Shown: piece after piece, positions 3,483-41,345 of the stretch
How positions within the stretch are numbered: position 1 is the stretch's first letter
How the letters are laid out: each line of letters opens with the position of its first letter
Assembly: GCA_007376395.1 (NCBI GenBank)
Contig: VMGE01000001.1
Coordinates: 25,635-89,634 of the forward strand
DNA length: 64,000 bases
Reading direction: 5' to 3'
Source: Microgenomates group bacterium Gr01-1014_5
GTDB taxonomy: Bacteria; Patescibacteriota; Microgenomatia; UBA8517; UBA10165
The notes under the pieces: model-generated
What the model saw: only the letters and a program-made list of their open reading frames with translations
Told to the model about the DNA's origin: nothing
Databases searched by the model: none
Translations under genes and position numbers: made by a program

Positions 3483-3532
3483 TTTACTAATGTTTTAGCC
3501 TAAAGTCAAAAATTTTAGGTATAATTCTCTTT

Positions 3533-11435: not shown

Positions 11436-11719
11436 TTGTTAACTCCGATCCGATCGGAATTAACCAATGCTTCAATATACTTCCTACTTTTATAAGATTT
11501 CAATTGCCGTTCTCTTAACCTAGCTTCTAATATATTATCGTATTCTTCGGTATAAGCAAGTGTAAATGTCTTTAAAACTTTAGTTGTTCGAGTATGTCCG
11601 CCTTTGTGTTGCTTTAGCCTTCGTTCAAGATTGTTAGTCGAACCAACATAATACCTGCCCGTTTTGTCGTTTCTCGAAATATACAACCAGCCCCTCGTTT
11701 TGTGATATTTATCCGACAA
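11426..11719 (-). CDS. GIY-YIG nuclease family small protein (cassette 1)
   Basis: GWLYISRNDKTGRYYVGSTNNLERRLKQH (GIY...YVG...R..H). Confidence 0.8.
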   Translation of the reverse strand: MSDKYHKTRGWLYISRNDKTGRYYVGSTNNLERRLKQHKGGHTRTTKVLKTFTLAYTEEYDNILEARLRERQLKSYKSRKYIEALVNSDRIGVNKTP

Positions 11720-12607: not shown

Positions 12608-12644
12608 CCTAAAAGTATAGGAGTAAAATATATTATTTCAACCT

Positions 12645-12725
12645 GAGCGGGAGATGCAAGTTATTCCGAACTCTTTCTCCCACACACCCTATCTCATTTT
12701 AGCAACTTAATGGTAACCTATCAAG
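12645..12725 (+). repeat. 81-nt repeat element, copy A (about 88% identical to copy B at 14016-14096); candidate cis-regulatory leader
   Basis: gagcgggagaYgcaagttattccgaactctttctccc... contains the stem GGGAGA/TCTCCC; lies about 30 nt upstream of the 12758 start codon. Confidence 0.5.
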
Positions 12726-12757
12726 CTAAGAATGCTACTGTTTGATATAATCTACGC

Positions 12758-13703: not shown

Positions 13704-13955
13704 TTAATCAATTATAGGAGCTAGTATTTTTCTTAGCTGTCTTCTACCCCAAGAAGTTTTAAGATACTCTTCTCTTTTAAGAGCTTCGAGTCTATTCGGA
13801 TACTCTTCCTTGTAAATTAATTTAAACGGAATTCTGTGTCTTGTAGATTGAACCTGACCTGTATTGTGATCCTGAAGTCTTCTTTCTATATTATTAGTGC
13901 AACCAACATAAGTTCTTTTATCTTTAAGACTTTGCAAAACATATACCGTACACAC
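13704..13955 (-). CDS. GIY-YIG nuclease family small protein (cassette 2)
   Basis: VYVLQSLKDKRTYVGCTNNIERRLQDHN. Confidence 0.8.
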   Translation of the reverse strand: MCTVYVLQSLKDKRTYVGCTNNIERRLQDHNTGQVQSTRHRIPFKLIYKEEYPNRLEALKREEYLKTSWGRRQLRKILAPIID

Positions 13956-14015
13956 ACGTTTAGTTTAATGAGTCCGTCTCCTCGTCCGCCTTTGGCGAGA
14001 CGGGGACGAGACTAT

Positions 14016-14096
14016 GAGCGGGAGACGCAAGTTATTCCGAACTCTTTCTCCCTCACATCCTAGCTCATTTTAACAGGTTAATGGAAGCCTATCAAG
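14016..14096 (+). repeat. 81-nt repeat element, copy B; directly upstream (with SD aaggagg) of the PLD nuclease gene
   Basis: See copy A; ends 15 nt before ATG 14112. Confidence 0.5.
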
Positions 14097-14111
14097 TCGA
14101 AAAGGAGGAAA

Positions 14112-14570
14112 ATGGATCGTTCTAACGCTCTAAATACCTCTTCTTTGTTTGATGAGGCTACTTTCTATAAAAAGTTCCTTAAAGACTTGGCATATTGTAG
14201 CCATGAATTAATTATAGAAAGCCCATATATCACATCCGGAAGGATGAAAACCTTATGGCCTACCCTAAAAAAGTTACTTGGCAGAGGTGTCAAAATCTAT
14301 TTTCTTACCAGAGACCCTAGAGAACACGAATTAGGCATGGAGTATCAGTCGGAAGATGAAATTAGGTACTGTGAAGAGCTTGGAATACAAGTTTTACTGT
14401 GCGCTGGTAATCACCACCGAAAACTAGCTATTCTTGATAGAAAGGTGCTTTGGGAAGGTAGCCTTAACATTCTCTCTCAGGCGCACAGTCGTGAGATTAT
14501 GAGAAGAATTGAAGGAAAAGAAATGGCACTTCAGATGTTTAATTTTTTGAGGCTGGATAATTTTATCTAG
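14112..14570 (+). CDS. single-HKD phospholipase D-family nuclease (Nuc/DrmC-like)
   Basis: Perfect HxKx4Dx6GSxN: NHHRKLAILDRKVLWEGSLN. Confidence 0.7.
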   Translation: MDRSNALNTSSLFDEATFYKKFLKDLAYCSHELIIESPYITSGRMKTLWPTLKKLLGRGVKIYFLTRDPREHELGMEYQSEDEIRYCEELGIQVLLCAGNHHRKLAILDRKVLWEGSLNILSQAHSREIMRRIEGKEMALQMFNFLRLDNFI

Positions 14571-14779
14571 CTGACTACAAACTTCGTTTTCAAGGCTCTT
14601 GCGATACTCTCCAGTATTTCAAAAGAGGGATTTACCTCTCCTCTTTCGATACGAGCATAATAATTTACATGGACACCGGCTTTCTCGGCAACTTCTACTT
14701 GAGTTAATTTAGCCTGTTTTCTAGCCTTTTTTATGGTTTTTCCTAGTTGATCTTGTGACCCCATATTTGGATTATACAA
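14567..14779 (-). CDS. XRE-family HTH transcriptional regulator
   Basis: LGKTIKKARKQAKLTQVEVAEKAGVHVNYYARIERGEVNPSFEIL. Divergent from the helicase operon. Confidence 0.75.
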   Translation of the reverse strand: MYNPNMGSQDQLGKTIKKARKQAKLTQVEVAEKAGVHVNYYARIERGEVNPSFEILESIARALKTKFVVS

Positions 14780-14802
14780 CTTTTGTGGATAGTTTGCTTC
14801 TG

Positions 14803-14832
14803 TCTTATAGGCAGAGTTTCTGCTAAAATTGA
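14803..14832 (+). promoter_or_regulatory. 30-nt promoter/operator motif (TCTTATAgGCagaGTTTCTGCTAAAATTGA) upstream of the SNF2 operon; second copy at 24524-24553
   Basis: Extended -10 TGCTAAAAT. Near-identical 30-mer 11 nt before the 2TM/NTase operon start. Confidence 0.5.
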
Positions 14833-14864
14833 TCTGGTTTGTACCTTTTTAAGAATTTTAAGAT

Positions 14865-17800
14865 ATGTCGCAGTTTTTACGAAGCTATTTAGCTACAAAA
14901 CTTACTTTAAGGCGTTCAATTACTGACCCTGAAAAGTTAAATACCAGTATAAGGTCAGCAAATGTAGATTTAAACCCTCATCAAGTTGACTCCGCCGTAT
15001 TTGCGTTTAATAGTCCTCTCTCAAGGGGCGCCATTCTTGCTGATGAAGTCGGATTAGGTAAAACAATTGAGGCAGGACTTATTATTAATCAATTATGGGT
15101 CGAGGGGCAAAGAAAAATATTAATCCTAGTACCTGCATCTTTGCGAACTCAATGGGCAGATGAACTTAGAGATAAGTTTGGACTTGATTCTACAATTCTA
15201 GATTCCAAAATACTGAAACAATTACAACAATCTACCGATTCGTTTAATCCTCTTGATAATCCCAAAATCTTTATAGCTTCTCATAATTTTGCATATAAAA
15301 ACGAATTACATGTTAAAAAAACACCTTGGGATTTAGTAGTTATTGATGAAGCACACAGAATGAGAAATGTTTATAGGAAGGGTAACAAAACTGCAAAAAA
15401 ACTCAGAGAGACTATTTTAGGAAGACCAAAATTATTATTAACAGCAACTCCTTTACAAAATAGCTTAATGGAATTATTCGGCCTCGTTAGTTTTATTGAT
15501 GAAAAATATTTAGGCGACCCTGACTCTTTCAAATTTTTATATGTACAGCAACGAGGCACTAATAATGAGGCACAAAGGACTAAATTATCAGATCTTAGGG
15601 AGAGATTAATGGGGATAATTGATAAAAACACTGGCGAAACAGAGGGTGGAATAATGACTAGAACTCTTAGAAAACAGGTTAGAGGTTTAATCCCATTTAC
15701 CAATAGATTCAATATCACAGAAGATTTTAATCCAAATGACGACGAGGTAGAACTCTATAACAGCGTAAGTGATTATATTCAAAGACCTCTTCTAGCTTCT
15801 ACTAAGGCAACACAACGACACATGATGGAACTTGTTTATAGAAAAATATTAGCAAGCTCGTCGTTTGCTATTGCCGGAACTCTATTTCGGGTATCTCAAT
15901 TTCTAGCTAAAAGGTTGCAAAAGGAACACAAGGTTCAGATTGAAGAATTACAAGCCGTAGCCGATTTAGTATTAGTTGATGCCGACCAAAGGTTTGGCAG
16001 AAAATTTGATAAATTCGAAGTCGAAAAAGTTGAGGAAGTAGTTGAAGAAGAACAATTATCAATATTAAACGATATTGAGCTCTCGCTTGATGATTTAGAA
16101 GAAGAGGAAGGAGACGCTATTCAGGATGAACTAACAAAAATTGAAGAGGGCGAAGATTCCCCTAAGGAGTTGGAGGAAATACAAGAGAGAGAAATTGATC
16201 ACAAGTTTTCAAAAGAGGAAATTATTAGTGAATTTAAAGATGTTCTTGGCTACTACTTACTTGCTACTTCAATCGATAAAAATCAAAAAAGCCAATCATT
16301 GATTAGAGCGTTAAAAAAAGTTTTCGATCATGCTGAAAAAAAGAATTGGCCTAAAAAAGCAGTAATCTTTACCGAGTCGCGCAGGACTCAAGACCACCTC
16401 GAAAACATATTATCTCTGGCTGGTTATGAAGATAATATTATCTTGTTTAATGGTTCTAATGCCGGTAAAAAAGCAAAAGATATTTATCAAGAATGGGCTA
16501 ACGAGTTTCCTGACGAAGCAGAGAAAAATCCAAAATCTATTAGTTTGAGAAAAGCGTTAGTTTGGAAATTCAGAACCTTAAAAGAAGCTATTTTAATCAC
16601 TACTGAGGCTGGTGCAGAAGGTATTAATTTACAATTTTGTAATATTGTAGTGAATTATGACCTTCCTTGGAATCCTCAAAGGATAGAGCAAAGAATAGGA
16701 AGATGTCATAGATACGGACAGGAATTAGATGTATTAGTTATTAATTTTCTCAATAAAAGAAATTATGCGGATGAAAGAGTTTATGAATTACTACGAGAAA
16801 AAATAAAGCTATTTGGAAACTTGTTTGATTTTAGCGACAAAATCCTTGGAACTGAAGAGCAAACTGATGATGGTTATGAAGTTAGAGAAATTGCATTGGG
16901 TTCTTTAGATAGTGGCGTTGGATTTGAACGAAAGGTGCTTAATATCTATCAAAAATGCAGAACCAAAGTTCAAATAGAGAAGGAATTTAATCAATTAGAG
17001 TTAGATTTGTCGAGTGAGATAGAAGAAAAATTTGAAAATACACAAAGAAAAGTTATCCAACACTTCGATGAAGAAGTTAGGGCTAAATTAAGGATTAGAA
17101 ATCAAAAAATATCTGAAATGCTTAACTCTTTTGATAGAGATTTAGAGCGTTATATTAAGCTAGTTTTTAACTCTGGACTAAGGCAAATTGATGAACATAG
17201 ATTTGAAGTTAAGCATGTCCCTAAAGATATTGAGAAGTCTGATATTAAAAATCTGGTTGGAAAAATATTAGGAATTGGGGTAGTTACAGATATCGAAAGA
17301 CAAAAAGGTGTACTACCAATACACACAGAAACACAATATTTTTCTGATTTACTTAAAAAAGATGCCAAAGATAAGGATTTTATTTATAAGATTACCTTTA
17401 GCCATGACGGTGAGTCAAAGCGCTTAGATTTTAAAGATATTCATGGGAGGAATGGATTATTGAGCATTGTAAAAGTAGTTTGCCGTAGAAAAACAATAAA
17501 TAATATTGATGAAGTATTTGAAGAATTAGTTTTTACTTGCTTAGTAAAAGATGAAGCATCTTGGGCACTTCCTACAAAAGTTGAGGATGGAAAAGGCTGG
17601 AGTAACATTGGGAGTTATAAAGCAGAAAAAATAGTAAATTTATTGGTTAAAAATGAAAAACAAGCAGAATTTGAGATTCCTAATATTCTCAAAATATGTT
17701 CAGAAGAGAATATAAATTTAAAGAAGGAAGAGTTTATTGAGAAAAACCAAGGTTTTATAGAAAAAATGCGCGATCAATTAAATCAATATAGCGATGATGT

Positions 17801-18086
17801 TCTATTAAGATTCAAAAGAGAGATGGACGAAAGAGAGGAAGAAATTAGGGCGCTAGAAAGAAGTATGAAAGGCTCTAAGACGACAGGATTTCATGAACGA
17901 CAACAAATTCAGCAAGATATAGATAAAAAGCAACGACAATATGCCCAAGCAGTCAAGAAACACGCAGAAATGCAGTTGGGTTTATTCAACGATAAAGATA
18001 AGAGTTTAAAAGATTTAGAAAAAAAATTGACCTTAGGTTTTGAACTAGTACAATTGGCAACAATTTCATTTACAATTGAATCATGA
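14865..18086 (+). CDS. SNF2/RAD54-family SF2 helicase (DrmD-like), long C-terminal extension
   Basis: Motif I ADEVGLGKTIEAG, II VVIDEAHRMRN, III LLLTATPLQNS, V-VI TEAGAEGINLQ...YDLPWNPQRIEQRIGRCHRYGQ. Stop overlaps the next start (ATGA). Confidence 0.85.
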   Translation: MSQFLRSYLATKLTLRRSITDPEKLNTSIRSANVDLNPHQVDSAVFAFNSPLSRGAILADEVGLGKTIEAGLIINQLWVEGQRKILILVPASLRTQWADELRDKFGLDSTILDSKILKQLQQSTDSFNPLDNPKIFIASHNFAYKNELHVKKTPWDLVVIDEAHRMRNVYRKGNKTAKKLRETILGRPKLLLTATPLQNSLMELFGLVSFIDEKYLGDPDSFKFLYVQQRGTNNEAQRTKLSDLRERLMGIIDKNTGETEGGIMTRTLRKQVRGLIPFTNRFNITEDFNPNDDEVELYNSVSDYIQRPLLASTKATQRHMMELVYRKILASSSFAIAGTLFRVSQFLAKRLQKEHKVQIEELQAVADLVLVDADQRFGRKFDKFEVEKVEEVVEEEQLSILNDIELSLDDLEEEEGDAIQDELTKIEEGEDSPKELEEIQEREIDHKFSKEEIISEFKDVLGYYLLATSIDKNQKSQSLIRALKKVFDHAEKKNWPKKAVIFTESRRTQDHLENILSLAGYEDNIILFNGSNAGKKAKDIYQEWANEFPDEAEKNPKSISLRKALVWKFRTLKEAILITTEAGAEGINLQFCNIVVNYDLPWNPQRIEQRIGRCHRYGQELDVLVINFLNKRNYADERVYELLREKIKLFGNLFDFSDKILGTEEQTDDGYEVREIALGSLDSGVGFERKVLNIYQKCRTKVQIEKEFNQLELDLSSEIEEKFENTQRKVIQHFDEEVRAKLRIRNQKISEMLNSFDRDLERYIKLVFNSGLRQIDEHRFEVKHVPKDIEKSDIKNLVGKILGIGVVTDIERQKGVLPIHTETQYFSDLLKKDAKDKDFIYKITFSHDGESKRLDFKDIHGRNGLLSIVKVVCRRKTINNIDEVFEELVFTCLVKDEASWALPTKVEDGKGWSNIGSYKAEKIVNLLVKNEKQAEFEIPNILKICSEENINLKKEEFIEKNQGFIEKMRDQLNQYSDDVLLRFKREMDEREEEIRALERSMKGSKTTGFHERQQIQQDIDKKQRQYAQAVKKHAEMQLGLFNDKDKSLKDLEKKLTLGFELVQLATISFTIES

Positions 18087-26509: not shown

Positions 26510-28327
26510 TTATAAATAAATTTCTCTTGGATCAGTAGTTAGTAGTGGATGTTCTTTATCTGAAGCTACAACTTTTAAGGCTACATGGTTTTGATCTGCA
26601 ATAATAATCGCTTCTCCTCTATCGCAGGTCAGAAGAAATTTTTGTTCGTACTCGCTTAATTTGAATTCATTAGCTACTTTTTCAATGGTGGTTGTATCTT
26701 GTTTCATTAAAACACGGACAGATGACTGGGAGGCGATAGCCCGGCCATACTCTTGGTTCAAAAAGTCATTTGCCTGTTGGGAGATGATGGTTACTCCCAG
26801 ATAATACTTTCTGGCACGTCTGACAAGCCCGGAAATGAATCTTGCGCTCTCTTCGTGCTGTAGAAGCATCCAACCCTCATCAATGACTAAAATACGCTTC
26901 TGAGGGCTTGATTTGACCTGTGCATGGACAAAGTTAGCAACTACCATCATCATTATCTGGCGAAGCGACTCATTAAGATCTTTAATATCAAAAATAACCA
27001 GTCTGTTATCCAATTCGATGTTGGTTTGTGAATCAAAAACTGATGAGAGTGAACCCTTAACAAACCGCTCCAAGCGGTTACACAGATCCTTCTGTTTTAA
27101 CTCTTTAAGTACTTTGTATAAATCTTTGAGTATTGGAAATTCTTTGTTCTTAGTTTTTTTGGTGCCACTCATGGTAAACCCAAAGTTCTTGTAAGTTTGA
27201 ATGATAGCCTTATCGATTACTGCCCGTTCCTCAGCGTTCAAGCCTCCGACCATAAGCGAGATAATCTCTGTTAAGTCCTGAATATGCTCTGCCAAATCAT
27301 TATCTTCACCAAGTGAGTTAATGGTAAAGTCAAAAGGATTGATCTTTTCTTTGGATTTTGCAGAAAGTTTAATGTAGGTTCCGTTTACAGAAGCCGCCAA
27401 CTGTTTATATTCTCTTTCCGGATCAACAACGATAACTTTCGTACCCTGCATAAGTTGTCTTAATATCTCAACTTTTGCGGTGTAGCTTTTACCGCTTCCG
27501 CTCTGGGCGAAGATAATCGAGTTTGCGTTGTTTAAACTAAACCTATCGATAATGACCAGAGAGTTATTGGATTTATTGATTCCATACAAGATACCGGATT
27601 CTTGAACCAATTCTGACGAAACAAAAGGGAAAGTGAGAGCGGCAGACGAGCTATCTAAATTTCTTTTTTGGTTTAACTGGTTTTCTGCCCTTGGAAGTAT
27701 AGATTGTAAACCCTCAAGTTGTTGGAAAGTAGCAATTTTAATATAGAAAAGCCTTGTAGACATGACAGTTTCCAAAAGTGTAGTAATTTTGTTTAAGTCT
27801 GCCAAAGAATCAGCAGTAATAGTCATATAAATTGACACTTGGAATAGTTTTTCCTGGCCTCTTTGAATTTTATCTTTCAACTCCATGGCCGATTCCAGCG
27901 GATCGGTAATTTCCGAGCCGATAACTTTTCCTTGCTTAAGCATGGTTCTTTTAGTTGACTCAAGCTCGGTAATTTTTCTATTAAGTTTAGGTAGCGCCAT
28001 TAGCGGATCAATCTGTTCAATATGATATGAGATATCAACATTGTGGTTGAAGTTAATTAACATATTTAGCCAACCAGTGGAGGCTACATAAGGATAGCCG
28101 GAGATAAATAGTGTTCGAACAAACTTATCACCCATTTGAAGGTAACTTGATGATTCTTCAAGTCCGGAATAAGAAATTAAGTCAAGCTGGTCTTGTTCAC
28201 CGAAATTAAACTGTAAAGACTTTTTAACAACCTCTTTTTTTGAAGGTTTTTTCTTTTTAGGCTTACTGAGATCAAACTTGGGAATATTAAATCTGTTTAT
28301 AAGTTGTAATCTAGGTGTTTTAAACAT
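26510..28327 (-). CDS. virB4: VirB4/TrbE/CagE-family conjugative T4SS ATPase
   Basis: TLFISGYPYVASTGWLNMLIN, Walker A AQSGSGKS, Walker B RILVIDEGWMLL. Confidence 0.85.
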   Translation of the reverse strand: MFKTPRLQLINRFNIPKFDLSKPKKKKPSKKEVVKKSLQFNFGEQDQLDLISYSGLEESSSYLQMGDKFVRTLFISGYPYVASTGWLNMLINFNHNVDISYHIEQIDPLMALPKLNRKITELESTKRTMLKQGKVIGSEITDPLESAMELKDKIQRGQEKLFQVSIYMTITADSLADLNKITTLLETVMSTRLFYIKIATFQQLEGLQSILPRAENQLNQKRNLDSSSAALTFPFVSSELVQESGILYGINKSNNSLVIIDRFSLNNANSIIFAQSGSGKSYTAKVEILRQLMQGTKVIVVDPEREYKQLAASVNGTYIKLSAKSKEKINPFDFTINSLGEDNDLAEHIQDLTEIISLMVGGLNAEERAVIDKAIIQTYKNFGFTMSGTKKTKNKEFPILKDLYKVLKELKQKDLCNRLERFVKGSLSSVFDSQTNIELDNRLVIFDIKDLNESLRQIMMMVVANFVHAQVKSSPQKRILVIDEGWMLLQHEESARFISGLVRRARKYYLGVTIISQQANDFLNQEYGRAIASQSSVRVLMKQDTTTIEKVANEFKLSEYEQKFLLTCDRGEAIIIADQNHVALKVVASDKEHPLLTTDPREIYL

Positions 28328-28940
28328 ATTGGTTCTCCAATAACATTTGAATAGTTTGTCCTTTTAACTCCTGAGTCTTAATTTGTGACGGATTGTAGAA
28401 GTTATAAAATAAATCAAGAAGCTCTAGGCTGTCTAAGACTCTGGCTTTCATTCCTAACCTCTCCAATCCTCTTTGTACAATGTCCCGGTTTAAATAAATC
28501 TGTTCTTTTATTAAGTTAAAGTCTTTATTCCTGTCTAAATGTTGATAAGGTATTACTACATAAAATCTTCTGGATAAGATTTTGTTTCCGGCAACAAGAT
28601 TTTTAATAAAATCGCAGTAATTATCTGTTTGTTCTTTATAAATCTTTTCTTTCTCATTTTTCTTACTTTGAGAGATAGCTTCTAAATACCTGTCAATATC
28701 AACTTCCCGAACCCTTATTAAAACCTGTAAAGCACACGGAAGAGAGTTAAGGAAGTTTTGGAAAGAATCAATTAAAACATCTTGTTCGGCTTCGCTTTTT
28801 AATTCAAAGTTAATAGAGGAAGTTTCAATAATTAACCTATATTGGTTATTTGGTAATACCAGAATTCCGTCGCGGACTTCTTTCATCTGAATTTGTCTGC
28901 GAGACGATACTCTACTTTTGGACTTGCCCAACAGAAACAT
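28320..28940 (-). CDS. T4SS-associated hypothetical protein (operonic, overlaps virB4 start)
   Basis: 206 aa, no TM helix; position conserved in Gram-positive T4SS clusters. Confidence 0.35.
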   Translation of the reverse strand: MFLLGKSKSRVSSRRQIQMKEVRDGILVLPNNQYRLIIETSSINFELKSEAEQDVLIDSFQNFLNSLPCALQVLIRVREVDIDRYLEAISQSKKNEKEKIYKEQTDNYCDFIKNLVAGNKILSRRFYVVIPYQHLDRNKDFNLIKEQIYLNRDIVQRGLERLGMKARVLDSLELLDLFYNFYNPSQIKTQELKGQTIQMLLENQYV

Positions 28941-29430
28941 TGAAGCCTCCTTTCTTGCCCGGTTTTAAGATAAATGAATATCTGGGGTCTCTTACAATAT
29001 TTTCGAACTTCACTAAATCACGGATCGCAAAAGCAGGTATTGGAGCTTTGTTTTCCAGCTTCGCTGGCGCTTTTTTAAATATTCTTCTTTGCCTTTTCTC
29101 AAAGACAGGAAGATCAAGAGTTCTTAAAGCAACTTCATTTTTGTTATACAGATAATACCGGGGTCTTAAGTTATACCGCAGAAGAATGACTAACCAATTC
29201 AAAACTACCTTCCCTTTAATTCTTAATGAGAGGAGTAAAGAAATAAGCAAGACCACAAGTACTATCGGAAACTTATATACCGCCAGATTCATTCGTGGAG
29301 GCAAGAATGCATAGGCAAATGTGGTGAAGAATACCGGAATCATAAGCAGAAGGATTTGTGTCAGGTTTAGATTTCCTGCGATTTTATCCTCAACTGTTGT
29401 AATTTGTGCCGGAATAACTGTTGTTCTCAT
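28912..29430 (-). CDS. VirB3-like small 2TM membrane protein
   Basis: Two hydrophobic helices near the N-terminus; overlapping-gene operon position between VirB6-like and VirB4. Confidence 0.35.
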   Translation of the reverse strand: MRTTVIPAQITTVEDKIAGNLNLTQILLLMIPVFFTTFAYAFLPPRMNLAVYKFPIVLVVLLISLLLSLRIKGKVVLNWLVILLRYNLRPRYYLYNKNEVALRTLDLPVFEKRQRRIFKKAPAKLENKAPIPAFAIRDLVKFENIVRDPRYSFILKPGKKGGFNVSVGQVQK

Positions 29431-30791
29431 GCGTGTACCACCTTTCTGGGAGTTTTAACTGCTCTTTGTGTAGCCTCTCTGGACTCTGAGGAATTGTTAC
29501 TGGTAGTCATAACATTCATAATCTGGCCACCAATATTTCTCATCATTCCCCGTCCGGTGTTGTACATAATAAGTTGCATCATAAAGCCCGGAGTTTTTAA
29601 GAGTGTAAAGAATAAACCAATTCCCACAGCAATAGAAATTAAGGAGTTATTGTTATTGCCAGGGATCGTTAAGAACGATGAGGCAAGTTGAATGATAACT
29701 ACATGGACAAAGACTGCAAAAACTGTGACTATGTAGCTTTTAATCGCAATCTCGGCAAAGTCAGCGGTTTTTGGTATTGCCATGAGGAGAAATATAAACG
29801 GAGACAATACCGCACCAAGTGAGATGGCAATTAGTCTGGTTATGTACATAAGGAGCAGAACAATTGAAACAATCAGAAATAGAATTAAAAAGATAAGCGT
29901 GATCAGTGGCGTTGTACCGGTAATAAAGGCAGTCGGATTAACGGCATTCAGTACCCATGCTTGGTTTAATCCTCCGGTTAAATCTAAGACTCCCTTAACT
30001 AAAGCGTTACAGGTGATAATCACATAGTCTGCTAAGAATAAGGATGTATTTGCTCCCAAGAAGCAAATGCCGATTCTAGGTAAAAGCTGTCTTAATTCAA
30101 CCTCTTCAAAACCGAATGTTGAGGCACTCATAAAGCGAAGACCTAAAAGCGCAACTACAACAACAAATAGCGAATCTACAATCCCTAAAGTAATCAGCCA
30201 GAAATTGAATACAACCGAGTTTGTCATTAAGTTTGGAGTAGTAGTCAGATAAGTCATAATCGCGTCCACTGTGGGCTTTGTAGCGCTTTCTACGATATTC
30301 TGCATAAAGCCTGTGACTGCATCTATTAAGACTTGAGTTAAACCGCCGGTAGGCTCTGCACTTTCAAGAGGGGTTAGAGCGACAGCACCAGTGTTTGTAT
30401 TTGCCGAAGGGTTTGTTAGGGCATTTTGAAATACCGAGATAATAGTTCCGGCGGCAAGGATTAACACCAGTCCAATCAAGGCATTCTTAATAGTTTTCTT
30501 AGCATTGTTTAAACTTTCAGGGTTTCCGGAAGAAGCAATATATAAATATCCACCCTTAATCAAAAAAAAGACCGCCGAAGCGGTCCCGATTAGGGTAATG
30601 ATTTGTAAAGTATCTCTAGTGTAGTTTGTAATTTCAGAACTTGTTGTGACTTGGGCGAACACAGGAGAAGCGTAAATAAAAGTTAATAGTATTCCAATAA
30701 ATCCACCTAAGATTCGACTCATATCTTTAGTTATTAAACGAGCAGATAGAGCAGAAAAATTAATTACCTCCGCCAAATGCACCGGTTGCAA
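29427..30791 (-). CDS. VirB6/TrbL-like polytopic membrane protein with N-terminal pilin-like module
   Basis: More than 6 TM segments. N-terminus GGYLYIASSGNPESLNNAKKTIKNALIGLVLILAAG duplicates the pilin motif of the adjacent VirB2-like gene. Confidence 0.5.
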   Translation of the reverse strand: MQPVHLAEVINFSALSARLITKDMSRILGGFIGILLTFIYASPVFAQVTTSSEITNYTRDTLQIITLIGTASAVFFLIKGGYLYIASSGNPESLNNAKKTIKNALIGLVLILAAGTIISVFQNALTNPSANTNTGAVALTPLESAEPTGGLTQVLIDAVTGFMQNIVESATKPTVDAIMTYLTTTPNLMTNSVVFNFWLITLGIVDSLFVVVVALLGLRFMSASTFGFEEVELRQLLPRIGICFLGANTSLFLADYVIITCNALVKGVLDLTGGLNQAWVLNAVNPTAFITGTTPLITLIFLILFLIVSIVLLLMYITRLIAISLGAVLSPFIFLLMAIPKTADFAEIAIKSYIVTVFAVFVHVVIIQLASSFLTIPGNNNNSLISIAVGIGLFFTLLKTPGFMMQLIMYNTGRGMMRNIGGQIMNVMTTSNNSSESREATQRAVKTPRKVVHA

Positions 30792-32651: not shown

Positions 32652-35207
32652 TTAGAATACTTTACTTTCAGGAAATAGCACATCACCCACACTATTATTC
32701 GTCCGATTTACACTTTCTGTTTCTTTGACTTCAGTAATTTTATTACTTACTTGTTGACTAACTTTTTGATATTTTATAGCCCAGTTTTTTCGGGAAGCCT
32801 CTATCAATTTGTCTATCTTTTTACTATCTCTTTTAAGAGGTGTGTAGATTGTTTCACCAGAGAAAGGTTCTTCCGGTTCAACCGCTGATACTTTAATGTA
32901 GAAACTATATTTGGGGAGATTAGAAATATCTCCTCTGTCTATATATGGCGCGAACTGATTTAACATCAACTCTTCATCTATATAGTTAGCGCTTCTAAAA
33001 CAGACAACGGTTGTTACGTTTGCCAAGATAACATTAACTATATTTCTATCATCTTGTTGTGAGGCGGATTGTTCAGCGATTGTAACCCTTAATTTATATT
33101 TTCTTCCCTCAGATAACATCTTAGTAAATGAGTGGGTGGCAAAGTTTTGGAATTCGTCTACATATAGATAAAATGGTTTTCTTTTGCTTTCGGAAATATT
33201 AGAACGTTTTAGTGCGGCTTGTTGTATTTTGGTCATAATAGTTGTTCCCAATAATCTTGAAGTGTCTTCACCTAATTTTCCTTGAGAAAGATTACAGATA
33301 ATAATTTTCCCAGAGTCCATTAATTCGCCAAAGTTAACAGTAGATTTTGGTTGTTCTAAAATTCTCTTTGCAGTTGGAGAAAACAAGAAACGTCCAATCT
33401 TTGCGGTAACTCCGCCAACCATTTTAACCACCTGATAATCACCAGCTCTACCAAACTCATACTTCCAAAAGTTTTTTAAGTTTTCATCTTTTAATTTAGC
33501 TAAAACCTGTTTTTGAAAAGGTGGGTTATTTAAAAGGTCATATACAGTAAAGATTGTTCTACCCTCTACAGTAAAAGCAGTGTAGATAGCGTTTCTTAAG
33601 ACATACTCAATTCTATGGGCGTTTACATATTCTTCTTTGGAAAATACTTTTCTGAATAAAGATATGACACCTTCGGCAACAACTTCTTTTTCTAACTCTG
33701 CTTCGTCCTCATCTAATCCGGGTGTTAACTCTAAGATATTTATTCCTATTGGAAACTTCAAATCAATTGGGTTAATGAATACCAAATCATTCAATCTCTT
33801 TTCAGGGATAACAGCAATCAAATCATCTGCAGCGTCTCCATGGGGGTCAAGAAAAGCCATACCTCTGCCTTGTTCAATATCATGCTTTGCCATCGAAAAC
33901 ATCATTGTTGTTTTACCAGAACCCGTGCGTCCAATAATGTACATGTGGGTTTCGCGCTCCTCTTCGGTTAAGCCTATATCTGTGATAGCGCCCCCATAAT
34001 TGTTTTTACCAAAGACCACATCATATTTATTACCTTTCTTCAAGGAGAGTGGCGCAGGGAGAGTTTTGCTATGTGACTTAACTAAATTTTCTGTATTCGT
34101 GGAACTGGTGTAGGGAAAATGATAAATACTGGAGATTTCAGAAATTGATAACACCGATGTTTTTGTCAAAGATAACACTCTTTTCTTAAAAGTATAAAAA
34201 GAGAAGTCTTTTAGCTTATCTATATTCAAAACTCTTTTAGTACCTAAAGACTGGTATCCGGTAGAAGAAAAAGTTGAGAAAGAAGACTTAAATCCTTGAA
34301 TTCTTTCTGATAAATCATCTTTATCGTTAAAAGACATAAGAAGTCTAATCGTTGTTTCAAACAAGGGTTGATTTATCTTTGAATCTATCGAGGCTACAAT
34401 ATCCATCTCGGAAGGAGATTTTGTTTTTGGCGCTCTATATGAATTGTAAAATAGCCATTTCAATAAAAATGTTGGAGTTTTTAGATACTTAATAACATCC
34501 CCATTAGCAGAGATGAGTTTTGCAATCTTTTTTGCACCTTTGCTATTGGCAGGAGAAACAACTAATTGAAGTGAGATTAATTCACCCGGAGCAAGTTTAG
34601 TCATCTGTCCGGTAAGGTAGGCAATCGGGTCATGCTTATCTAATTCACTTTGTCTTTTAAGGGAAAAGGCAAAATGCTTGGATAACTTAAATTCGATAAT
34701 CTTATAAAAGTGTTTTTTAAGAGTGCTTTTATCCTCTGGCAAATATTCACTTACTGTTTTAACGCGTAAATTAGGAAGGTAAGATAATAAATTCTTCTTT
34801 AATGTGTTTACCTGTTTAGGCGAAGTTCTTATTAAATATCTAATTCCTTGATTTTGAGTTGACACTATCTCAAGAGAAAATCTGGTTTTGTTACCAAACA
34901 ACCAATCCTTAAATGACGTCTGGTTTCCAAGTGCATGGATGATAGAAAAAAGTTGATCGGTTGTATAGGACATTTTTTCGGTAAAAGAGGGTGGGGTTAG
35001 CTCAAGTAGCATTGATGGCTCGCCTAACGACCTGCTAATGGCTAAAATCTTACGGATTATAAGCAGTAAAAAACCAGACAAGATAAGAAGAGCAACCGGA
35101 ATAATTAGGTTCTGAAAAGAAGCAAGAGAACTACCTTGAGGTTGACGGACGATTGAGACTAATTGATTTAGTAAATATCCGAACTCTAATTTATGAAGGT
35201 CGTTCAT
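32652..35207 (-). CDS. virD4: VirD4/TraG-like type IV coupling protein (T4CP)
   Basis: N-terminal TM anchor, Walker A IIGRTGSGKTTMM, ..DPHGD.., Walker B YLYVDEFQNF. Confidence 0.75.
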   Translation of the reverse strand: MNDLHKLEFGYLLNQLVSIVRQPQGSSLASFQNLIIPVALLILSGFLLLIIRKILAISRSLGEPSMLLELTPPSFTEKMSYTTDQLFSIIHALGNQTSFKDWLFGNKTRFSLEIVSTQNQGIRYLIRTSPKQVNTLKKNLLSYLPNLRVKTVSEYLPEDKSTLKKHFYKIIEFKLSKHFAFSLKRQSELDKHDPIAYLTGQMTKLAPGELISLQLVVSPANSKGAKKIAKLISANGDVIKYLKTPTFLLKWLFYNSYRAPKTKSPSEMDIVASIDSKINQPLFETTIRLLMSFNDKDDLSERIQGFKSSFSTFSSTGYQSLGTKRVLNIDKLKDFSFYTFKKRVLSLTKTSVLSISEISSIYHFPYTSSTNTENLVKSHSKTLPAPLSLKKGNKYDVVFGKNNYGGAITDIGLTEEERETHMYIIGRTGSGKTTMMFSMAKHDIEQGRGMAFLDPHGDAADDLIAVIPEKRLNDLVFINPIDLKFPIGINILELTPGLDEDEAELEKEVVAEGVISLFRKVFSKEEYVNAHRIEYVLRNAIYTAFTVEGRTIFTVYDLLNNPPFQKQVLAKLKDENLKNFWKYEFGRAGDYQVVKMVGGVTAKIGRFLFSPTAKRILEQPKSTVNFGELMDSGKIIICNLSQGKLGEDTSRLLGTTIMTKIQQAALKRSNISESKRKPFYLYVDEFQNFATHSFTKMLSEGRKYKLRVTIAEQSASQQDDRNIVNVILANVTTVVCFRSANYIDEELMLNQFAPYIDRGDISNLPKYSFYIKVSAVEPEEPFSGETIYTPLKRDSKKIDKLIEASRKNWAIKYQKVSQQVSNKITEVKETESVNRTNNSVGDVLFPESKVF

Positions 35208-35355: not shown

Positions 35356-35709
35356 ATGCAAGGTATAGAACAACAATTATTGATAAGGGAAGAGAGAATA
35401 GTCACTCCATTAGTTGAAGTTTTAGACACAGTTAATCCACTCACGCCTCCTAAAAATACAGTTTCTATTTCTCCTACACTTCGTCAATCCTTAGATGAGT
35501 TGTTTCCAGAACAGCAATATGACGAGAAGGATATCCAAAAAGCAAAAGAGACTCTTGGAAAAATAGCTGATGAATTCACTGAAATTGAGCTCAAAGGAGT
35601 AATTGCCGAGGTGCAATTCTTGGCTGAAAGTTGGTTAGATGATTTTGAGAGAACGATTTTTAAAGGTATGACTCTAAAAGAGTTACTTCATGAGAAAGGT
35701 GGCGTATGA
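35356..35709 (+). CDS. hypothetical protein translationally coupled to the serine recombinase (possible accessory/directionality factor)
   Basis: Stop overlaps the recombinase ATG (35706). Confidence 0.35.
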   Translation: MQGIEQQLLIREERIVTPLVEVLDTVNPLTPPKNTVSISPTLRQSLDELFPEQQYDEKDIQKAKETLGKIADEFTEIELKGVIAEVQFLAESWLDDFERTIFKGMTLKELLHEKGGV

Positions 35710-37286
35710 AATTTGATCGTCCTGTTATCCACGAAGATGGCAAGAAAGCAGTTATTTATCTTCGAGTTTCCACCGAAGAACAAGTAGATAATTTTTCTTT
35801 AGGTAGCCAGGAAGATATTTGCAGGAAAGAAGCAGAAAAAAGAGGATATGAAGTGGTTGAGGTTTTCAGAGAAGAAGGAAGATCTGCTAAAACAATTCTT
35901 GGTAGACCTGTACTTATAAGTTTGCTGGAGTATTGCCGGAAGAACAAAACTAAAGTTCACGCGGTATTTGCATACAGGTTAGACAGAATATCGAGACAAA
36001 CCGCAGATTACCTAGCAATCAGGAAAAAGCTTCTTGAACAAGATATAACAATAATATCTGCCACTGAACCTACAGGTGACAGCCCTACTGAAAAACTAGT
36101 TGAAACAATCCTGGCCGGGTTTGCTCAACTGGATAACGATATTAGGTCAGAAAGAGCACGAAATGGGCTTAGAGCGAGATATATGTCAGGTCTTATAAGT
36201 GGTAAGCCCCCACTCGGATATAAGTTTCAGGCAGGGTTTGCAGTTAAAGACCCTGAAACCTGGGATAAGGTGAAAAGGGCTTGGGAGCTTATGGCAACTG
36301 GCACTAAAAGTACCCGAGACTTGGGTAAAATAATGTCTGATTGGGGTTTGAGAGAAATTCATGGCAAATTATCTTATGAACTTCGACCACAATCAGTTTG
36401 CCGTATTTTTAGGCTTAAATTCTATGCAGGTATCTTAACATCTAAAACATATCCTGATGAGATTAAAGGACAACATGTACCAATGATTACAGAGGAGCTT
36501 TTCTATAAGGTACAGGCTCTCCTTGACGGCAGGGGTCCTAACAGAGGGGTCTTTGTAAAAAGAACATTTATAAATGAGGCATTTCCTTTAAGAAGAATTG
36601 TCAAATGTGGTAAGTGTGGTGCAGGGCTAACTGGATACTGGAGCACAGGAAAAATGGGAGTCAGATATGCTTATTATTCCTGCGGCATGAAGTGTAATTA
36701 CAAATGTATCCCTGTAAAAGAAGTTGAGGATAGTGTGATTGATATGCTTAAAGACATCACTCCAAAGGAAGAGGCACTTAAGCTCTTTATCAACTCTGTT
36801 TACAAAGCATATCACCAAAGGCTCTCAAGGCTTAACAAAACAAAAAGCGAAGCAAATCAAGAGATAGAGCGTCTGAAATTACTTAGAAAGTCTCTGGTTG
36901 AAAAAAATCTATCAGGAGTTTATTCGGATGAAATATTTAAAGAACAAAGCGCAATAATAGAGGATAAAATGATAAAGTCTCAGATTTCTAAAGAGGACTC
37001 AATAATTAATAAATATAATATTGATGCACTAACTTCTTTTATTAAAACTCTTTTGGCTGATTTAGGAGAAGCTTACAAAAGATCTAGTATTCCACAGCTA
37101 AAAATACTCCTGAGTTCGGTGTTCGAGGATAATCTCACTTGGGACTATAATGGCACACCGAACTCTAAGATTAGCCCGTTATATCAGTATATTCGTGACT
37201 TTTCGGAACATCATGTCCCGTCTGGAGCGGGAAACGGGATTCGAACCCGCGACCTTCTCGTTGGCAACGAGACGCTCTACCACTGA
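35706..37286 (+). CDS. large serine recombinase (resolvase domain + recombinase domain + zinc ribbon + coiled coil)
   Basis: AVIYLRVSTEEQ (catalytic Ser), ..AYRLDRISRQ.., VKCGKCGAGLTGYWS...YYSCGMKCNYK zinc ribbon. The C-terminal 21 codons read through tRNA-Gly(GCC). Confidence 0.85.
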   Translation: MKFDRPVIHEDGKKAVIYLRVSTEEQVDNFSLGSQEDICRKEAEKRGYEVVEVFREEGRSAKTILGRPVLISLLEYCRKNKTKVHAVFAYRLDRISRQTADYLAIRKKLLEQDITIISATEPTGDSPTEKLVETILAGFAQLDNDIRSERARNGLRARYMSGLISGKPPLGYKFQAGFAVKDPETWDKVKRAWELMATGTKSTRDLGKIMSDWGLREIHGKLSYELRPQSVCRIFRLKFYAGILTSKTYPDEIKGQHVPMITEELFYKVQALLDGRGPNRGVFVKRTFINEAFPLRRIVKCGKCGAGLTGYWSTGKMGVRYAYYSCGMKCNYKCIPVKEVEDSVIDMLKDITPKEEALKLFINSVYKAYHQRLSRLNKTKSEANQEIERLKLLRKSLVEKNLSGVYSDEIFKEQSAIIEDKMIKSQISKEDSIINKYNIDALTSFIKTLLADLGEAYKRSSIPQLKILLSSVFEDNLTWDYNGTPNSKISPLYQYIRDFSEHHVPSGAGNGIRTRDLLVGNETLYH

Positions 37287-37297
37287 GCTACTCCCGC
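37223..37297 (-). tRNA. tRNA-Gly (anticodon GCC), CCA encoded
   Basis: rc: GCGGGAG-TA-GCTCAGTGGTAGAGC..anticodon loop TTGCCAA..GCGGG-TTCGAAT-CCCGT-TTCCCGC-T-CCA. Confidence 0.85.
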
Positions 37298-37536
37298 ACA
37301 TCTAACACAGAATTTAAATATTCCCGGCCTTTTCCTGTTTTAAGAAACAACTCTCTTCTATAAGCCTCACTTTTAGTGTTAAATGTCTCTCTGTGAACTA
37401 AAACATACGGTCTTGTTAGCTTTGTATACTTTGAAACACCACTATTGTGCTCTCGTATTCTTCTTTCAAGGTCAAGGGTAGACCCGGTATACAATCTGTT
37501 ATTCTTTAAGCTCCTAAGAACGTATACGTAATACAT
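37288..37536 (-). CDS. GIY-YIG nuclease family small protein (cassette 3)
   Basis: YYVYVLRSLKNNRLYTGSTLDLERRIREHN. Confidence 0.8.
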   Translation of the reverse strand: MYYVYVLRSLKNNRLYTGSTLDLERRIREHNSGVSKYTKLTRPYVLVHRETFNTKSEAYRRELFLKTGKGREYLNSVLDVRE

Positions 37537-39608: not shown

Positions 39609-39679
39609 GCGGGATTAGTTGAACGGCTCAACATCTGCTTTCCAAGCAGAAAAAACGGGTTCGACTCCCGTATCCCGCT
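39609..39679 (+). tRNA. tRNA-Gly (anticodon TCC)
   Basis: GCGGGAT-TA-GTTGAACGGCTCAAC..TCTGC-TTTCCAA-GCAGA..ACGGG-TTCGACT-CCCGT-ATCCCGC-T. Confidence 0.8.
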
Positions 39680-39757
39680 CAAAAGTATGACGTTATGTGA
39701 GAGAAAATCTCACACTTAGAAAAAACAGAGTGTTAGCCAATACGCTTCGCGATTCGC

Positions 39758-39778
39758 GACTCCCGTATCCCGCTCCAG
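39758..39778 (+). repeat. partial direct copy of the tRNA-Gly(TCC) 3' end (gactcccgtatcccgctcca); att-like remnant. Third, shorter copy at 40773-40788
   Basis: Original ttcgactcccgtatcccgctca at 39660-39681; copies cgcgactcccgtatcccgctccag (39755-39778) and atatcccgctccagacgg (40773-40790). Confidence 0.55.
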
Positions 39779-39787
39779 AAGGTGAAG

Positions 39788-40456
39788 TTAGTTTGTCAAA
39801 GCCAATTCTTTTAAATTTTGTGCTTCTTTAAGCCAAAAATCCTGCCATTCTTTCTCTGGTAGTTCAGTCAGTAGAGCGGGATAGTCCTCTAATGCGGTAA
39901 CTTTTAGAAGTTGTTGACCCATTTGAATAGGATCAATAGGAGAATCAAACTTAGCTTTAGCCTTTTTGATTAAATCTTTAAATTCCCAGCCTTTAGTTTT
40001 AATAATTAAATACAGGTCGATAAAATGCCGACTACTTGGCTGTTGGTAAATAGTAAATGTTTTATTGGTTGCGATATCTATTAGACTATCTACTTTAATT
40101 CCATTTATTACCTTTGGTTGTTCAATCTGGGTAAATGGATAGTATGTAAATTCAGTCTTTATGACCCCCTCTTTGTGATGAAGAAAGAATAAATTTCTGT
40201 TAAAGCTTTGTTGAAAATCAATTTTATCTATTCTAGCCTCTTTTTGAAGGGATTTTAAACTTACTTGGATATTCATTGGATCTACTTCTTCCATGCAAAA
40301 GAAATCTAGATCTTCTGATAATCTATGCTGAAGATAATATTCAGCTAAAGCAGTACCACCGGATAAATAAAAGTTATTTACAATATCAGTTTTCTTTGAT
40401 ATAAGATCGAGAAGAAGTTTTTGTGTATCAGTTAAGATTGTTTTGGCCATAATCAA
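39788..40456 (-). CDS. AbiEii/DUF1814-family nucleotidyltransferase (type IV TA / abortive-infection toxin-like)
   Basis: FYLSGGTALAEYYLQHRLSEDLDFF matches the AbiEii GGTAL...R.S.DLDF signature. Confidence 0.6.
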   Translation of the reverse strand: MIMAKTILTDTQKLLLDLISKKTDIVNNFYLSGGTALAEYYLQHRLSEDLDFFCMEEVDPMNIQVSLKSLQKEARIDKIDFQQSFNRNLFFLHHKEGVIKTEFTYYPFTQIEQPKVINGIKVDSLIDIATNKTFTIYQQPSSRHFIDLYLIIKTKGWEFKDLIKKAKAKFDSPIDPIQMGQQLLKVTALEDYPALLTELPEKEWQDFWLKEAQNLKELALTN

Positions 40457-40468
40457 AACCTCGATCTG

Positions 40469-40666
40469 TTAATGCTGTCCCAACCACATCTCAAGAAGCT
40501 TTTTTCTTTGAGGGTCAATGGTGAGTTTTAACCAATATTTTTTCAAATCATCAACCTTTAACTTTTCTCCATTAAGACCGAAATTAATACTTTGCTCTAG
40601 TTTCCAAATAGCGTATTTTTCAGGGTTTTTCTTTAATTTTTTAGTGTTTATATTCCAGTTATACAT
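40469..40666 (-). CDS. small hypothetical protein upstream of the AbiEii-like gene (possible cognate antitoxin; not AbiEi-like in size)
   Basis: 65-aa basic protein, same strand, 12-nt gap. Confidence 0.3.
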   Translation of the reverse strand: MYNWNINTKKLKKNPEKYAIWKLEQSINFGLNGEKLKVDDLKKYWLKLTIDPQRKKLLEMWLGQH

Positions 40667-40806
40667 GTATACATTATACCAGTTTTTGGCCTATTTTTCT
40701 TTATAAGTTTCCATCAACTTGCCAAAATGAATGAGTATTTGATTGCATAGGGGGCGCTAAATAATTTGCATATCCCGCTCCAGACGGGGCAGTGTCAATG
40801 GGAAAT

Positions 40807-41198: not shown

Positions 41199-41204
41199 CT
41201 ATGC

Positions 41205-41345
41205 ACGATGAAGCTCCCGCGACCTGACGGTCGGGGTATCTTCTCCCCACGGCTTCGTAGGGAGCGGAATCCCTCCGAAGCGAACAAGACTTCGCTCAGA
41301 GTCGCGAGCTAACGCTCTTGGGTATTTCGCGAAGGGGGATAAAAC
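41205..41345. other. GC-rich structured element (nested hairpins) in AT-rich context; candidate cis-regulatory RNA/ncRNA
   Basis: CGACC-tgac-GGTCG; GCTTCG-tAGGGAgcggaaTCCCTc-CGAAGC; GCGAA-caagac-TTCGC; TCGCGA...TCGCGA. Confidence 0.3.

Follow-up and report, generated by a model that had tools for sequence, protein, structure and literature searches.

The closest described system to the one considered here is that of the ssrA-specific islands of Dehalococcoides (DsiB, a CcrB-family serine recombinase). In these islands, a CcrB-type large serine recombinase (LSR) gene lies beside attL, direct repeats of the 3′ end accompany a conserved non-target motif at each repeat, and islands stand in tandem; members without an integration module have been proposed to be cis-mobilizable elements (CIMEs) (PMC3146451), a class for which both a definition and a concept of accretion are available (PMC5704250). 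Integrative mobilizable elements (IMEs) at tRNA 3′ ends usually use tyrosine recombinases, and IMEs with serine recombinases usually disrupt genes (PMC5704250), so that a family of LSRs that targets and restores tRNA ends is a less common variant. Here we analyse a stretch of 64,000 nt (the window) from a 333-kb contig of Microgenomates group bacterium Gr01-1014_5, a groundwater bacterium of the Candidate Phyla Radiation (CPR). On its + strand, a tRNA array (Leu-Leu-Val-Leu-Pro-Gly) ends in tRNA-Gly(TCC), and downstream of this gene a two-gene toxin–antitoxin (TA) cassette lies between partial copies of the tRNA 3′ end. We consider the region 39681–40797 (the islet) to be probably a decayed, integrase-less, CIME-like remnant of an LSR integrative element that inserted at the tRNA-Gly(TCC) 3′ end and was kept for its TA pair. 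The islet combines direct repeats of a tRNA 3′ end with deviant composition and an absence of integrase and transfer genes, as expected of islands and CIMEs; it is a real but fairly ordinary site-specific insertion fossil of a known type, and the result is in this respect a modest one.

The likeness to the Dehalococcoides islands extends, for the element family as reconstructed from relatives, to an LSR beside attL where a small structured RNA gene has its 3′ end, border repeats, a conserved non-target motif, an insertion point in the T-loop/acceptor region and tandem occurrence. The targets differ, being tRNA genes (Gly, Leu, Glu, Phe and Gln) of CPR hosts (Microgenomates) instead of ssrA; a second small recombinase (DsiA/CcrA-like) was not seen here, the repeat is shorter (7–14 nt), a ~90-nt leader containing a promoter serves as the terminal motif, and the islet retains a TA pair only. 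Composite islands of the SCCmec and pseudo-SCC kind (SCC, staphylococcal cassette chromosome) follow the same logic as CIME accretion and, like them and like CIMEs, the islet stands in tandem with other att copies at a conserved gene end. As for CIMEs, a related recombinase is present elsewhere in the same genome, with CcrB as its best NCBIfam match; the islet may be fixed, given that one arm of its far site has lost a recognition-like motif. Tycheposons of Prochlorococcus are reportedly cargo elements at tRNA genes of streamlined genomes, with partial tRNA repeats and arrays that include integrase-less units, and are said to carry tyrosine recombinases and replication-type genes of their own. 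In contrast, the enzyme associated with the present loci is an LSR, and the large element in the window resembles an integrative and conjugative element (ICE) with genes of a type IV secretion system (T4SS). We found no published description of such tRNA-end LSR elements for Patescibacteria in the literature.

The islet and the adjoining tRNA gene comprise the following features:

39609–39680, + strand: intact tRNA-Gly(TCC) (ARAGORN; the other end call is 39679; 63.6 bits with the Rfam tRNA model), terminal gene of the array
39662–39695: copy 1, the tRNA-Gly(TCC) 3′ end and its trailer, with the core CCCGCTC at 39674–39680 (repeat search)
39681–39756, + strand: 76-nt spacer between copies 1 and 2, holding a hairpin GTGAGAgaaaaTCTCAC and a 10-mer GTATGACGTT
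39757–39790: copy 2 in the repeat alignment, with the tRNA-like part 39757–39779 reading CGACTCCCGTATCCCGCTCCAGA (repeat search)
39757–39787, + strand: attL-like junction of copy 2, from the T-loop to the acceptor 3′ strand with CCA (CGACTCCCGTATCCCGCTCCA), then ~12 nt (GAAGGTGAAG) that touch the AbiEii stop codon
39788–40456, − strand: AbiEii/DUF1814 (MenT-like) nucleotidyltransferase gene, 222 aa (annotated as 220 aa with start 40450)
40469–40666, − strand: 65-aa partner gene, candidate antitoxin of an orphan CPR family, with four short predicted helices
40667–40770, − strand: leader, a terminal element (alignments; nhmmer profile match 40785–40656, E = 8.7e-28)
40771–40793: copy 3 in the repeat alignment, with the 14-nt core stretch 40771–40784 reading TATCCCGCTCCAGA (repeat search)
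40771–40797, + strand: attR/attP-like junction of copy 3, the core TATCCCGCTCCA followed by the trailer GACGGGGCAGTGTCA

Over 34 nt, copies 1 and 2 share 82% identity, with an exact 19-nt run (CGACTCCCGTATCCCGCTC); copies 2 and 3 share 87% over 23 nt, with an exact run of 14 nt. At ≤2 mismatches, this 14-mer occurs at four sites in the window against 0.15 expected, a number reached in none of 100 shuffles, so that the repeats cannot be put down to chance; the genuine 3′ end of tRNA-Gly(GCC) (37221–37234, − strand) accounts for the fourth. An earlier note on this DNA had described three partial tRNA-Gly(TCC) 3′ ends around the cassette, and its coordinates proved right to within a few bases. 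CCA is encoded in copies 2 and 3 (ATCCCGC-T-CCA) and absent from the live tRNA-Gly(TCC) (ATCCCGC-T-CAAAAG). The GC content of the cassette is 0.29–0.32, compared with ~0.37–0.47 in adjoining coding DNA and ~0.5 in the tRNA array. The trailer of copy 3 matches the recombinase-side arm that follows tRNA-Gly(GCC) in the window and, in a related locus (L064), tRNA-Gly(TCC), and the 17 nt after the copy 3 core resemble this arm (CAGACGGGGCAGTGTCA; compare L064).

The cassette was compared across ~20 distinct loci obtained by a metagenome scan and exact-protein look-ups (L numbers below). About half of these contexts are tied to tRNA genes, which are of differing kinds:

Window and L064: tRNA-Gly(TCC), adjacent to the cassette
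L039-41 and L061: tRNA-Gly(TCC), within 2.2 kb of the cassette
L038: tRNA-Gly(CCC), adjacent to the cassette
L063: tRNA-Gly truncated at the contig end, ~0.5 kb from the cassette
L044 and L049: tRNA-Leu(TAG), adjacent to the cassette
L042: tRNA-Leu(GAG), 0.9 kb upstream; beside the cassette, a partial copy of the tRNA-Leu 3′ end
L050: tRNA-Glu(CTC), adjacent to the cassette

Six cassettes form a clade with 72–81% identity (window, L038, L039-41, L061, L063 and L064), each of them with a tRNA-Gly gene (TCC, CCC or truncated at the contig end) at most 2.2 kb upstream. In L050, the cassette lies between 14-nt repeats of the end of tRNA-Glu. In L039-41, which is syntenic with the window, the three-part layout of copies 1, 2 and 3 recurs and a 21-nt stretch of copy 2 (GACTCCCGTATCCCGCTCCAG) is identical; L039-41 differs from the window by an extra block of 1.75 kb that holds three open reading frames (ORFs) and is bounded by two core copies, which would be the expected trace of an att-mediated gain or loss since the lineages split. 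Related loci with the same genes carry the repeat as well; their lacking it was what the earlier note had said would speak against its interpretation.

The end of the islet distal to the tRNA gene belongs to a sequence that is conserved over ~90–115 nt. This leader comprises an extended −10 box (TGGTATAAT, 40673–40681) located 6 nt before the ATG, a block CATTTTGGCAAGTTGATGG and an arm (X arm) that ends in ...AAATAATTTGCATAT. Two further copies are present in the window:

12642–12766, + strand: second leader and X-core (core 12645–12650, tRNA sense on the − strand), preceding a 285-aa gene (nhmmer E = 2.8e-31)
14012–14123, + strand: third leader and X-core (core 14016–14021), preceding a PLD/DrmC-like gene (nhmmer E = 1.5e-27)

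The 285-aa gene behind the second leader has no family match. A leader also heads an FMO-like gene in L061, and more copies occur in L061, L002 (a syntenic Blackburnbacteria locus), L042, L060 and L049. All six clade cassettes share the junction ...AAT(T/A)TGC-(G/A)T.T-CCCGCTC, ~105–180 nt upstream of the partner gene; in tRNA sense, the sequence upstream of the partner reads ...AGTTCGGAATAAtTTGCGTCTCCCGCTC, and homology between loci ends exactly after CCCGCTC. Since this junction between X arm and CCCGCTC is kept although synonymous sites are saturated (proportion of synonymous differences, pS, 0.7–0.8), it is or was selected, and the leader is, by the same reasoning, functional DNA. The bases that terminate the leader vary with the target tRNA, Gly loci having TCCCGCTC, Leu loci TTCCGCAC and one Glu locus TGGGGTCACCA. 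In L042 and L060, the leader stands at the island end and the cassette is in the opposite orientation; the leader therefore belongs to the island terminus and not to the TA operon. Junctions of the copy 3 type are also kept in other genomes beside other cargo, including places where no tRNA gene adjoins. The earlier note had read the repeats as the footprint of one or two successive insertions; the ~20 related loci back its view of them as att remnants, and copy 3 is, judging by the alignments, the tip of a conserved element terminus (attP-left arm plus core), beyond a merely displaced native tRNA end. RNAalifold on 13 leaders gave a consensus structure with zero pairs, and the leader pattern had no match in IMG/VR. 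The leader holds a conserved mini-ORF of 7–12 codons (ATG GAr nnn TAy mAA ..., ME.YQEK).

These comparisons bear on the view that no mobile element was involved and that the copies are products of local duplication, of gene conversion that placed the tRNA 3′ end on the flanks of a TA operon already resident there, or of chance. The tRNA arrays are rearrangement hot spots here, with GIY-YIG and LAGLIDADG genes nearby, and similarity between the copies runs a few bases beyond the tRNA end, as such events could leave it. Chance is excluded by the site counts, however, and neither the persistence of the copy 3 junction in other genomes, with other cargo and even without an adjacent tRNA, nor the covariation of the core with the target tRNA, nor the deviant GC content of the cassette is accounted for; we regard an origin without an element as very improbable.

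No integrase is left in the islet, as the earlier note had stated, yet its probable family, LSR, can be named from remnants in related loci and an intact gene in the window:

35706–37286, + strand: intact LSR gene (Pfam Resolvase, Recombinase and Zn_ribbon_recom; best NCBIfam match CcrB)
37223–37297, − strand: tRNA-Gly(GCC), with 3′ end and trailer TTCCCGCTCCAGACGGGACA, attL of a large island

In L064 and L061, the last ~37 LSR codons are found between tRNA-Gly(TCC) and the cargo (tblastn E = 4e-7 and 8.5e-5), in L064 directly beside the AbiEii gene, and a shorter LSR piece is retained in L038; the 'missing integrase' of these islets was therefore probably an LSR. In L064 and L038, the remnant of the recombinase 3′ end occupies the position that copy 2 has in the window. 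The intact LSR gene lies 2.4 kb from the islet and its last 64 nt are inside the convergent tRNA-Gly(GCC), the end and trailer of which share 16 identical nt with copy 3 (TCCCGCTCCAGACGGG); this LSR is the candidate trans-acting enzyme for att sites of the islet type. In an IMG/VR contig (L065), a 53%-identical LSR has its end in tRNA-Phe and shares the coding tail ISPLYQ.IR.F, and a more distant LSR (23% identity) adjoins tRNA-Gln in L060. In the latter locus, the serine recombinase gene (2993–4357) is flanked by inverted 27-nt copies of the tRNA-Gln 3′ end with trailer (2759–2808, + strand; 4461–4510, − strand), which could be an invertible or rearranged att pair.

The window LSR stands at one edge of a ~24.6-kb conjugative (ICE)/defence island (12645–37297), for which the leader/core copy at 12645–12650 is the probable outer border (attR). 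The distance from tRNA-Gly(GCC) to tRNA-Arg(TCT) is 25.8 kb in the window versus 2.6 kb in L002, where the ORF beside tRNA-Gly(GCC), examined as a possible orthologue of a response regulator in the window, is not an orthologue. To the left of the LSR gene are a VirD4/TraG-like gene (32652–35207), TraG P-loop and TrbL/T4SS-pilin genes (26510–30791) and a relaxase-like gene. The island also includes a DISARM-like pair (14112–18086), formed by the leader-headed PLD/DrmC-like gene (152 aa) and a 1,073-aa SNF2 helicase (PADLOC DrmD, 1e-169).

Joining the X arm at the leader end to the arm on the recombinase side (Y arm) gives a candidate attP, GAGTTCGGAATAAYTTGCGTCT-CCCGCTC-CAGACGGGACATGATGTTCCGAAAAG, with an inverted TTCGGAA/TTCCGAA pair centred on the discriminator base. 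The T-loop-like GTTC of the X arms lies 5 nt farther from the core than the GTTC of the matching tRNAs, for three target types:

Gly target: GTTC starts at −27 in the X arm and at −22 in the tRNA (seven of eight X arms)
Leu target: −27 or −26 in the X arm and −22 in the tRNA (three X arms)
Glu target: −29 in the X arm and −24 in the tRNA (one of two X arms)

In serine integrases, the motif bound by the zinc-ribbon domain (ZD) is offset by 5 bp between attP and attB (PMC3783163), and at the level of the element family the GTTC shift is, as read from these alignments, the attP-versus-attB geometry of LSRs. An inner dyad (GTCtCCCG/CGGGAC), considered as the half-site symmetry, is out of register and was not used. 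The islet could instead be what remains of a classical tyrosine-integrase island, with copies 1 and 2 as its attL/attR core, copies 2 and 3 belonging to a second element and the serine recombinase unrelated. Tyrosine-integrase sites typically have identity blocks that extend from the T-loop to the 3′ end of the tRNA, copies 1 and 2 have 19 identical nt in common, and most IMEs at tRNA 3′ ends encode tyrosine recombinases (PMC5704250). Nevertheless, no tyrosine integrase is encoded beside any related cassette examined, LSR coding remnants lie exactly between tRNA and cargo in L064 and L061, and the far-junction repeats are short and imperfect (4–14 nt), features that, with the GTTC shift expected of LSR sites, make this origin improbable.

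Under the favoured reading, that of a decayed LSR element, one end of the original element would have carried the LSR gene, reading towards the tRNA with its last codons crossing the att site, and the other the ~90–115-nt leader with a promoter directed inwards at variable cargo. The leader tip would provide the attP-left arm with its T-loop-like GTTCGGAAT, after which a sequence (TCCCGCTC at Gly loci) imitates the acceptor 3′ strand of the tRNA, and crossover would take place at or beside the discriminator/CCA position (...CCCGC-TC|CA...). Copy 2 would then be a leftover attL, in which the T-loop-to-CCA part of a tRNA is joined to element DNA, and copy 3 the leader end plus core, an attR/attP-like site; everything encoded between attL and the AbiEii stop codon, including the LSR, would have been deleted. 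The remnant would have been retained because it encodes a working TA pair. GTTC is no longer present in the X arm of copy 3 (gcgctaaataatttgc), a decay for which the islet is probably fixed now. An intact tRNA-Gly(TCC) with its own trailer (copy 1) stands 95 nt upstream of copy 2, so at least two recombination events are needed; the tRNA gene may have been replaced, or a tandem insertion may have occurred, the body of which shrank to 76 nt. The spacer at 39681–39756 is what an earlier insertion left behind or, alternatively, the degraded 5′ portion of a tRNA copy once present there; Rfam detected no pseudo-tRNA at 39690–39780. In the window, the 10-mer GTATGACGTT (39685–39694) comes directly after tRNA-Gly(TCC), in L002 (4611–4620) directly before it, and window position 39695 is 90 nt after tRNA-Pro, compared with 92 nt for the start of tRNA-Gly in L002. 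The 10-mer and this spacing, the sole basis for the idea, are hints that the live tRNA-Gly(TCC) may be a replacement copy and copy 2 the original tRNA end.

Several points weigh against an LSR element as the source of the islet. LSRs strictly recombine attP with attB, so that tandem arrays and an intact attB-like tRNA call for extra assumptions; tandem arrays would require regenerated attB-like sites or other steps. The islet itself holds no LSR remnant, with only ~12 nt between copy 2 and the AbiEii stop codon. Among the right half-sites (native trailers), no mirrored motif recurs consistently, and copy 2 has a 19–21-nt identity block beginning in the T-loop that resembles a classical tyrosine-integrase core. 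The roles of the recombinase at these sites and of the toxin in the TA pair are predictions from sequence; the repeats, the gene families, the conserved junction, the LSR remnants in relatives and the 5-nt motif shift are direct observations, and the LSR as the agent, the point of crossover, the sequence of events and the target of the toxin are inferred from them. The comparison with orthologous loci that the earlier note had proposed did not yield a clean empty site: in L002, the best orthologous locus, the tRNA array is present and core copies are absent, yet a run of Ns marks an assembly gap immediately behind the tRNA, and the comparison with L039-41 gave the core-bounded 1.75-kb difference. 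Moreover, the cassette also occurs at sites other than tRNA genes. In L045/46 it lies between 70-nt direct repeats with 78% identity (L045, 35–104 and 987–1056), which are the 5′ end of a ychF-like GTPase gene that is restored downstream, and in L074, at an intergenic site, between 59-nt direct repeats with 86% identity (5687–5745 and 6670–6728). These sites have neither a leader nor an LSR trace, and LSR elements can therefore not explain all movements of the cassette. The distant AbiEii contexts (L074, L076 and L077) are likewise devoid of tRNA, leader and LSR traces. In L055/L056 (5583–5800 and 6670–6790), the cassette is flanked by shared short motifs in apparently mirrored order, including a 37-nt hairpin unit, that look like genome-specific repeat elements.

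The recurrence of ~1-kb units between direct repeats of a local target (tRNA-Gly in the window, tRNA-Glu in L050, the ychF-like gene in L045/46 and the intergenic site in L074) is what would be expected if the two-gene cassette were itself mobile, an integrase-less mini-element (satellite/CIME-like or integron-like) that was repeatedly excised and re-inserted. Its movement would be due to resident recombinases acting in trans or to single crossovers of a circle bearing a copy of the target end, with no deletion from a larger element. The AbiEii stop codon always touches the leftover recombinase-side arm (62 nt in L064, ~23 nt in L038 and ~12 nt in the window and L039), a constant boundary that is easier to derive from one ancestral mini-element than from repeated deletions with the same endpoint, and several leader-headed units stand in tandem in L061. 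On the other hand, neither a circular form nor polymorphic presence/absence was observed, the saturation of synonymous sites between copies means that vertical descent with rearrangement could give the same picture, the leader belongs to the island instead of the cassette (L042 and L060), and the X arm in the window has decayed. Considering both sides, we think that autonomous mobility of the cassette is unlikely, although it is the strongest competitor to the deletion of a larger LSR element.

The two genes of the cassette are under purifying selection. Between cassette copies, the proportion of nonsynonymous differences (pN) is ~0.12 for both genes against a saturated pS of 0.7–0.8, and both genes are therefore functional and the copies old. 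The 222-aa protein matches Pfam PF08843 (AbiEii) over residues 27–214 (54.3 bits, cutoff 22.5; E = 2.5e-14), as the earlier note had predicted in proposing this hidden Markov model search, and also 20 PADLOC AbiEii models (best, 5e-13). Motifs I and II of Pol-beta-type nucleotidyltransferases (NTases; hGG/S ... DxD) are present as GGTAL and SEDLDF, with the ORF reading YLSGGTALAEYYLQHRLSEDLDFF, and are kept among homologues; 1,915 homologues were detected, those with names being mostly from CPR bacteria, and similarity to solved DUF1814 structures is weak. The 65-aa partner recognized in the earlier note is a real, conserved protein with 278 homologues, all from CPR bacteria and none with a Pfam domain, and with the invariant residues N3, W4, W21, E24, Q25, G30 and L31. 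Its gene lies upstream of the toxin gene in all 18 related loci tested, overlapping it or ≤25 nt apart. The family assignment sought for it did not follow: profile searches against Pfam, NCBIfam, PADLOC and PDB sequences gave no match, and an AlphaFold2 model (pLDDT 80) had no Foldseek match in PDB at E ≤ 0.001. The size of the partner and the lack of Pfam, NCBIfam and PADLOC matches rule out AbiEi/COG5340 (winged helix–turn–helix plus C-terminal domain, ~200–300 aa), and the label of a type IV TA/Abi module, given in the earlier note, is consequently unsupported; the partner has no known family or fold. A relative of MenA1 was likewise considered and discarded, as the sizes are alike (65 versus 68 aa) yet neither the PDB profile search nor Foldseek matched.

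The general features of a TA module are nonetheless all present, namely a conserved two-gene operon with a small upstream partner and purifying selection on both genes. MenT toxins extend the 3′ CCA ends of tRNAs with nucleotides (PMC10435456, PMC7450476), and MenA1 is a 68-aa antitoxin (PMC10435456). As in MenAT1/AbiE systems, the toxin of the window belongs to PF08843 with N-terminal NTase motifs and, as in MenA1–MenT1, it is encoded downstream of a short partner (65–68 aa), whereas this partner has no sequence or fold similarity to MenA1 or AbiEi/COG5340. By analogy, the pair is most likely a tRNA-targeting TA module, with MenT/AbiEii-like nucleotide addition to tRNA 3′ ends and the 65-aa protein as the inhibitor. 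Transcription of the cassette would start from TGGTATAAT, giving a probably leaderless mRNA, and would probably end in the antisense tRNA T-arm. On the − strand at 39655–39671, the antisense T-arm of tRNA-Gly(TCC) followed by a T-run (TTTTTTCT) scores as intrinsic-terminator-like and is suited to end the convergent AbiEii operon. The action of MenT on tRNA 3′ ends had suggested a functional role for the tRNA-antisense sequences in the untranslated regions of the operon, an idea that was dropped because the cassette is found in both orientations relative to the tRNA fragments.

The genomes of CPR bacteria (Patescibacteria) are tiny and their mobile elements poorly described. The loci analysed here suggest that defence or addiction genes (the AbiEii-type TA pair and DISARM-like genes) enter such genomes at tRNA 3′ ends on LSR-driven elements. 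Their att sites can be read from sequence, with the attP mimic of the T-loop shifted by 5 bp, which offers a rule for locating island borders in CPR metagenome bins and candidate natural attP/attB pairs for a new set of tRNA-targeting serine integrases. The 65-aa protein would represent a new orphan antitoxin family for MenT/AbiEii-type toxins. We rate these by-products, the LSR att anatomy, the shared leader and the candidate antitoxin family, as being of moderate interest. More tentatively, the leader/core and the ~1-kb units might constitute an undescribed cassette system of CPR bacteria, in which integrase-less cassettes (TA pairs, DrmC-like nucleases and others) are moved between tRNA 3′ ends by resident LSRs, a proposal that we hold to be doubtful. 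If it were true, the ~90-nt head would combine a promoter with an attP half-site that mimics the T-loop/acceptor end of a tRNA, and the system would be an integron-like or SCC-like platform for the capture of defence genes in very small genomes.

Beyond the islet, two weak ORFs overlap a unique stretch at 41199–41300 that is rich in GC (~0.47–0.6) against its AT-rich surroundings; this stretch is without an Rfam match and has no further copy in the window or the compared loci, and Rfam searches at E ≤ 1 of this stretch, the leader and the spacer returned tRNAs only. Three small GIY-YIG ORFs (82–97 aa) are encoded on the − strand at 37288–37536, 13704–13955 and 11426–11719, the first two confirmed with Pfam; two directly adjoin a tRNA gene (37223 and 11361) and the third adjoins the leader/core copy at 14016–14021. 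A LAGLIDADG ORF is located within the tRNA array of L002, and tRNA neighbourhoods in these genomes seem to collect genes of the homing-endonuclease type.

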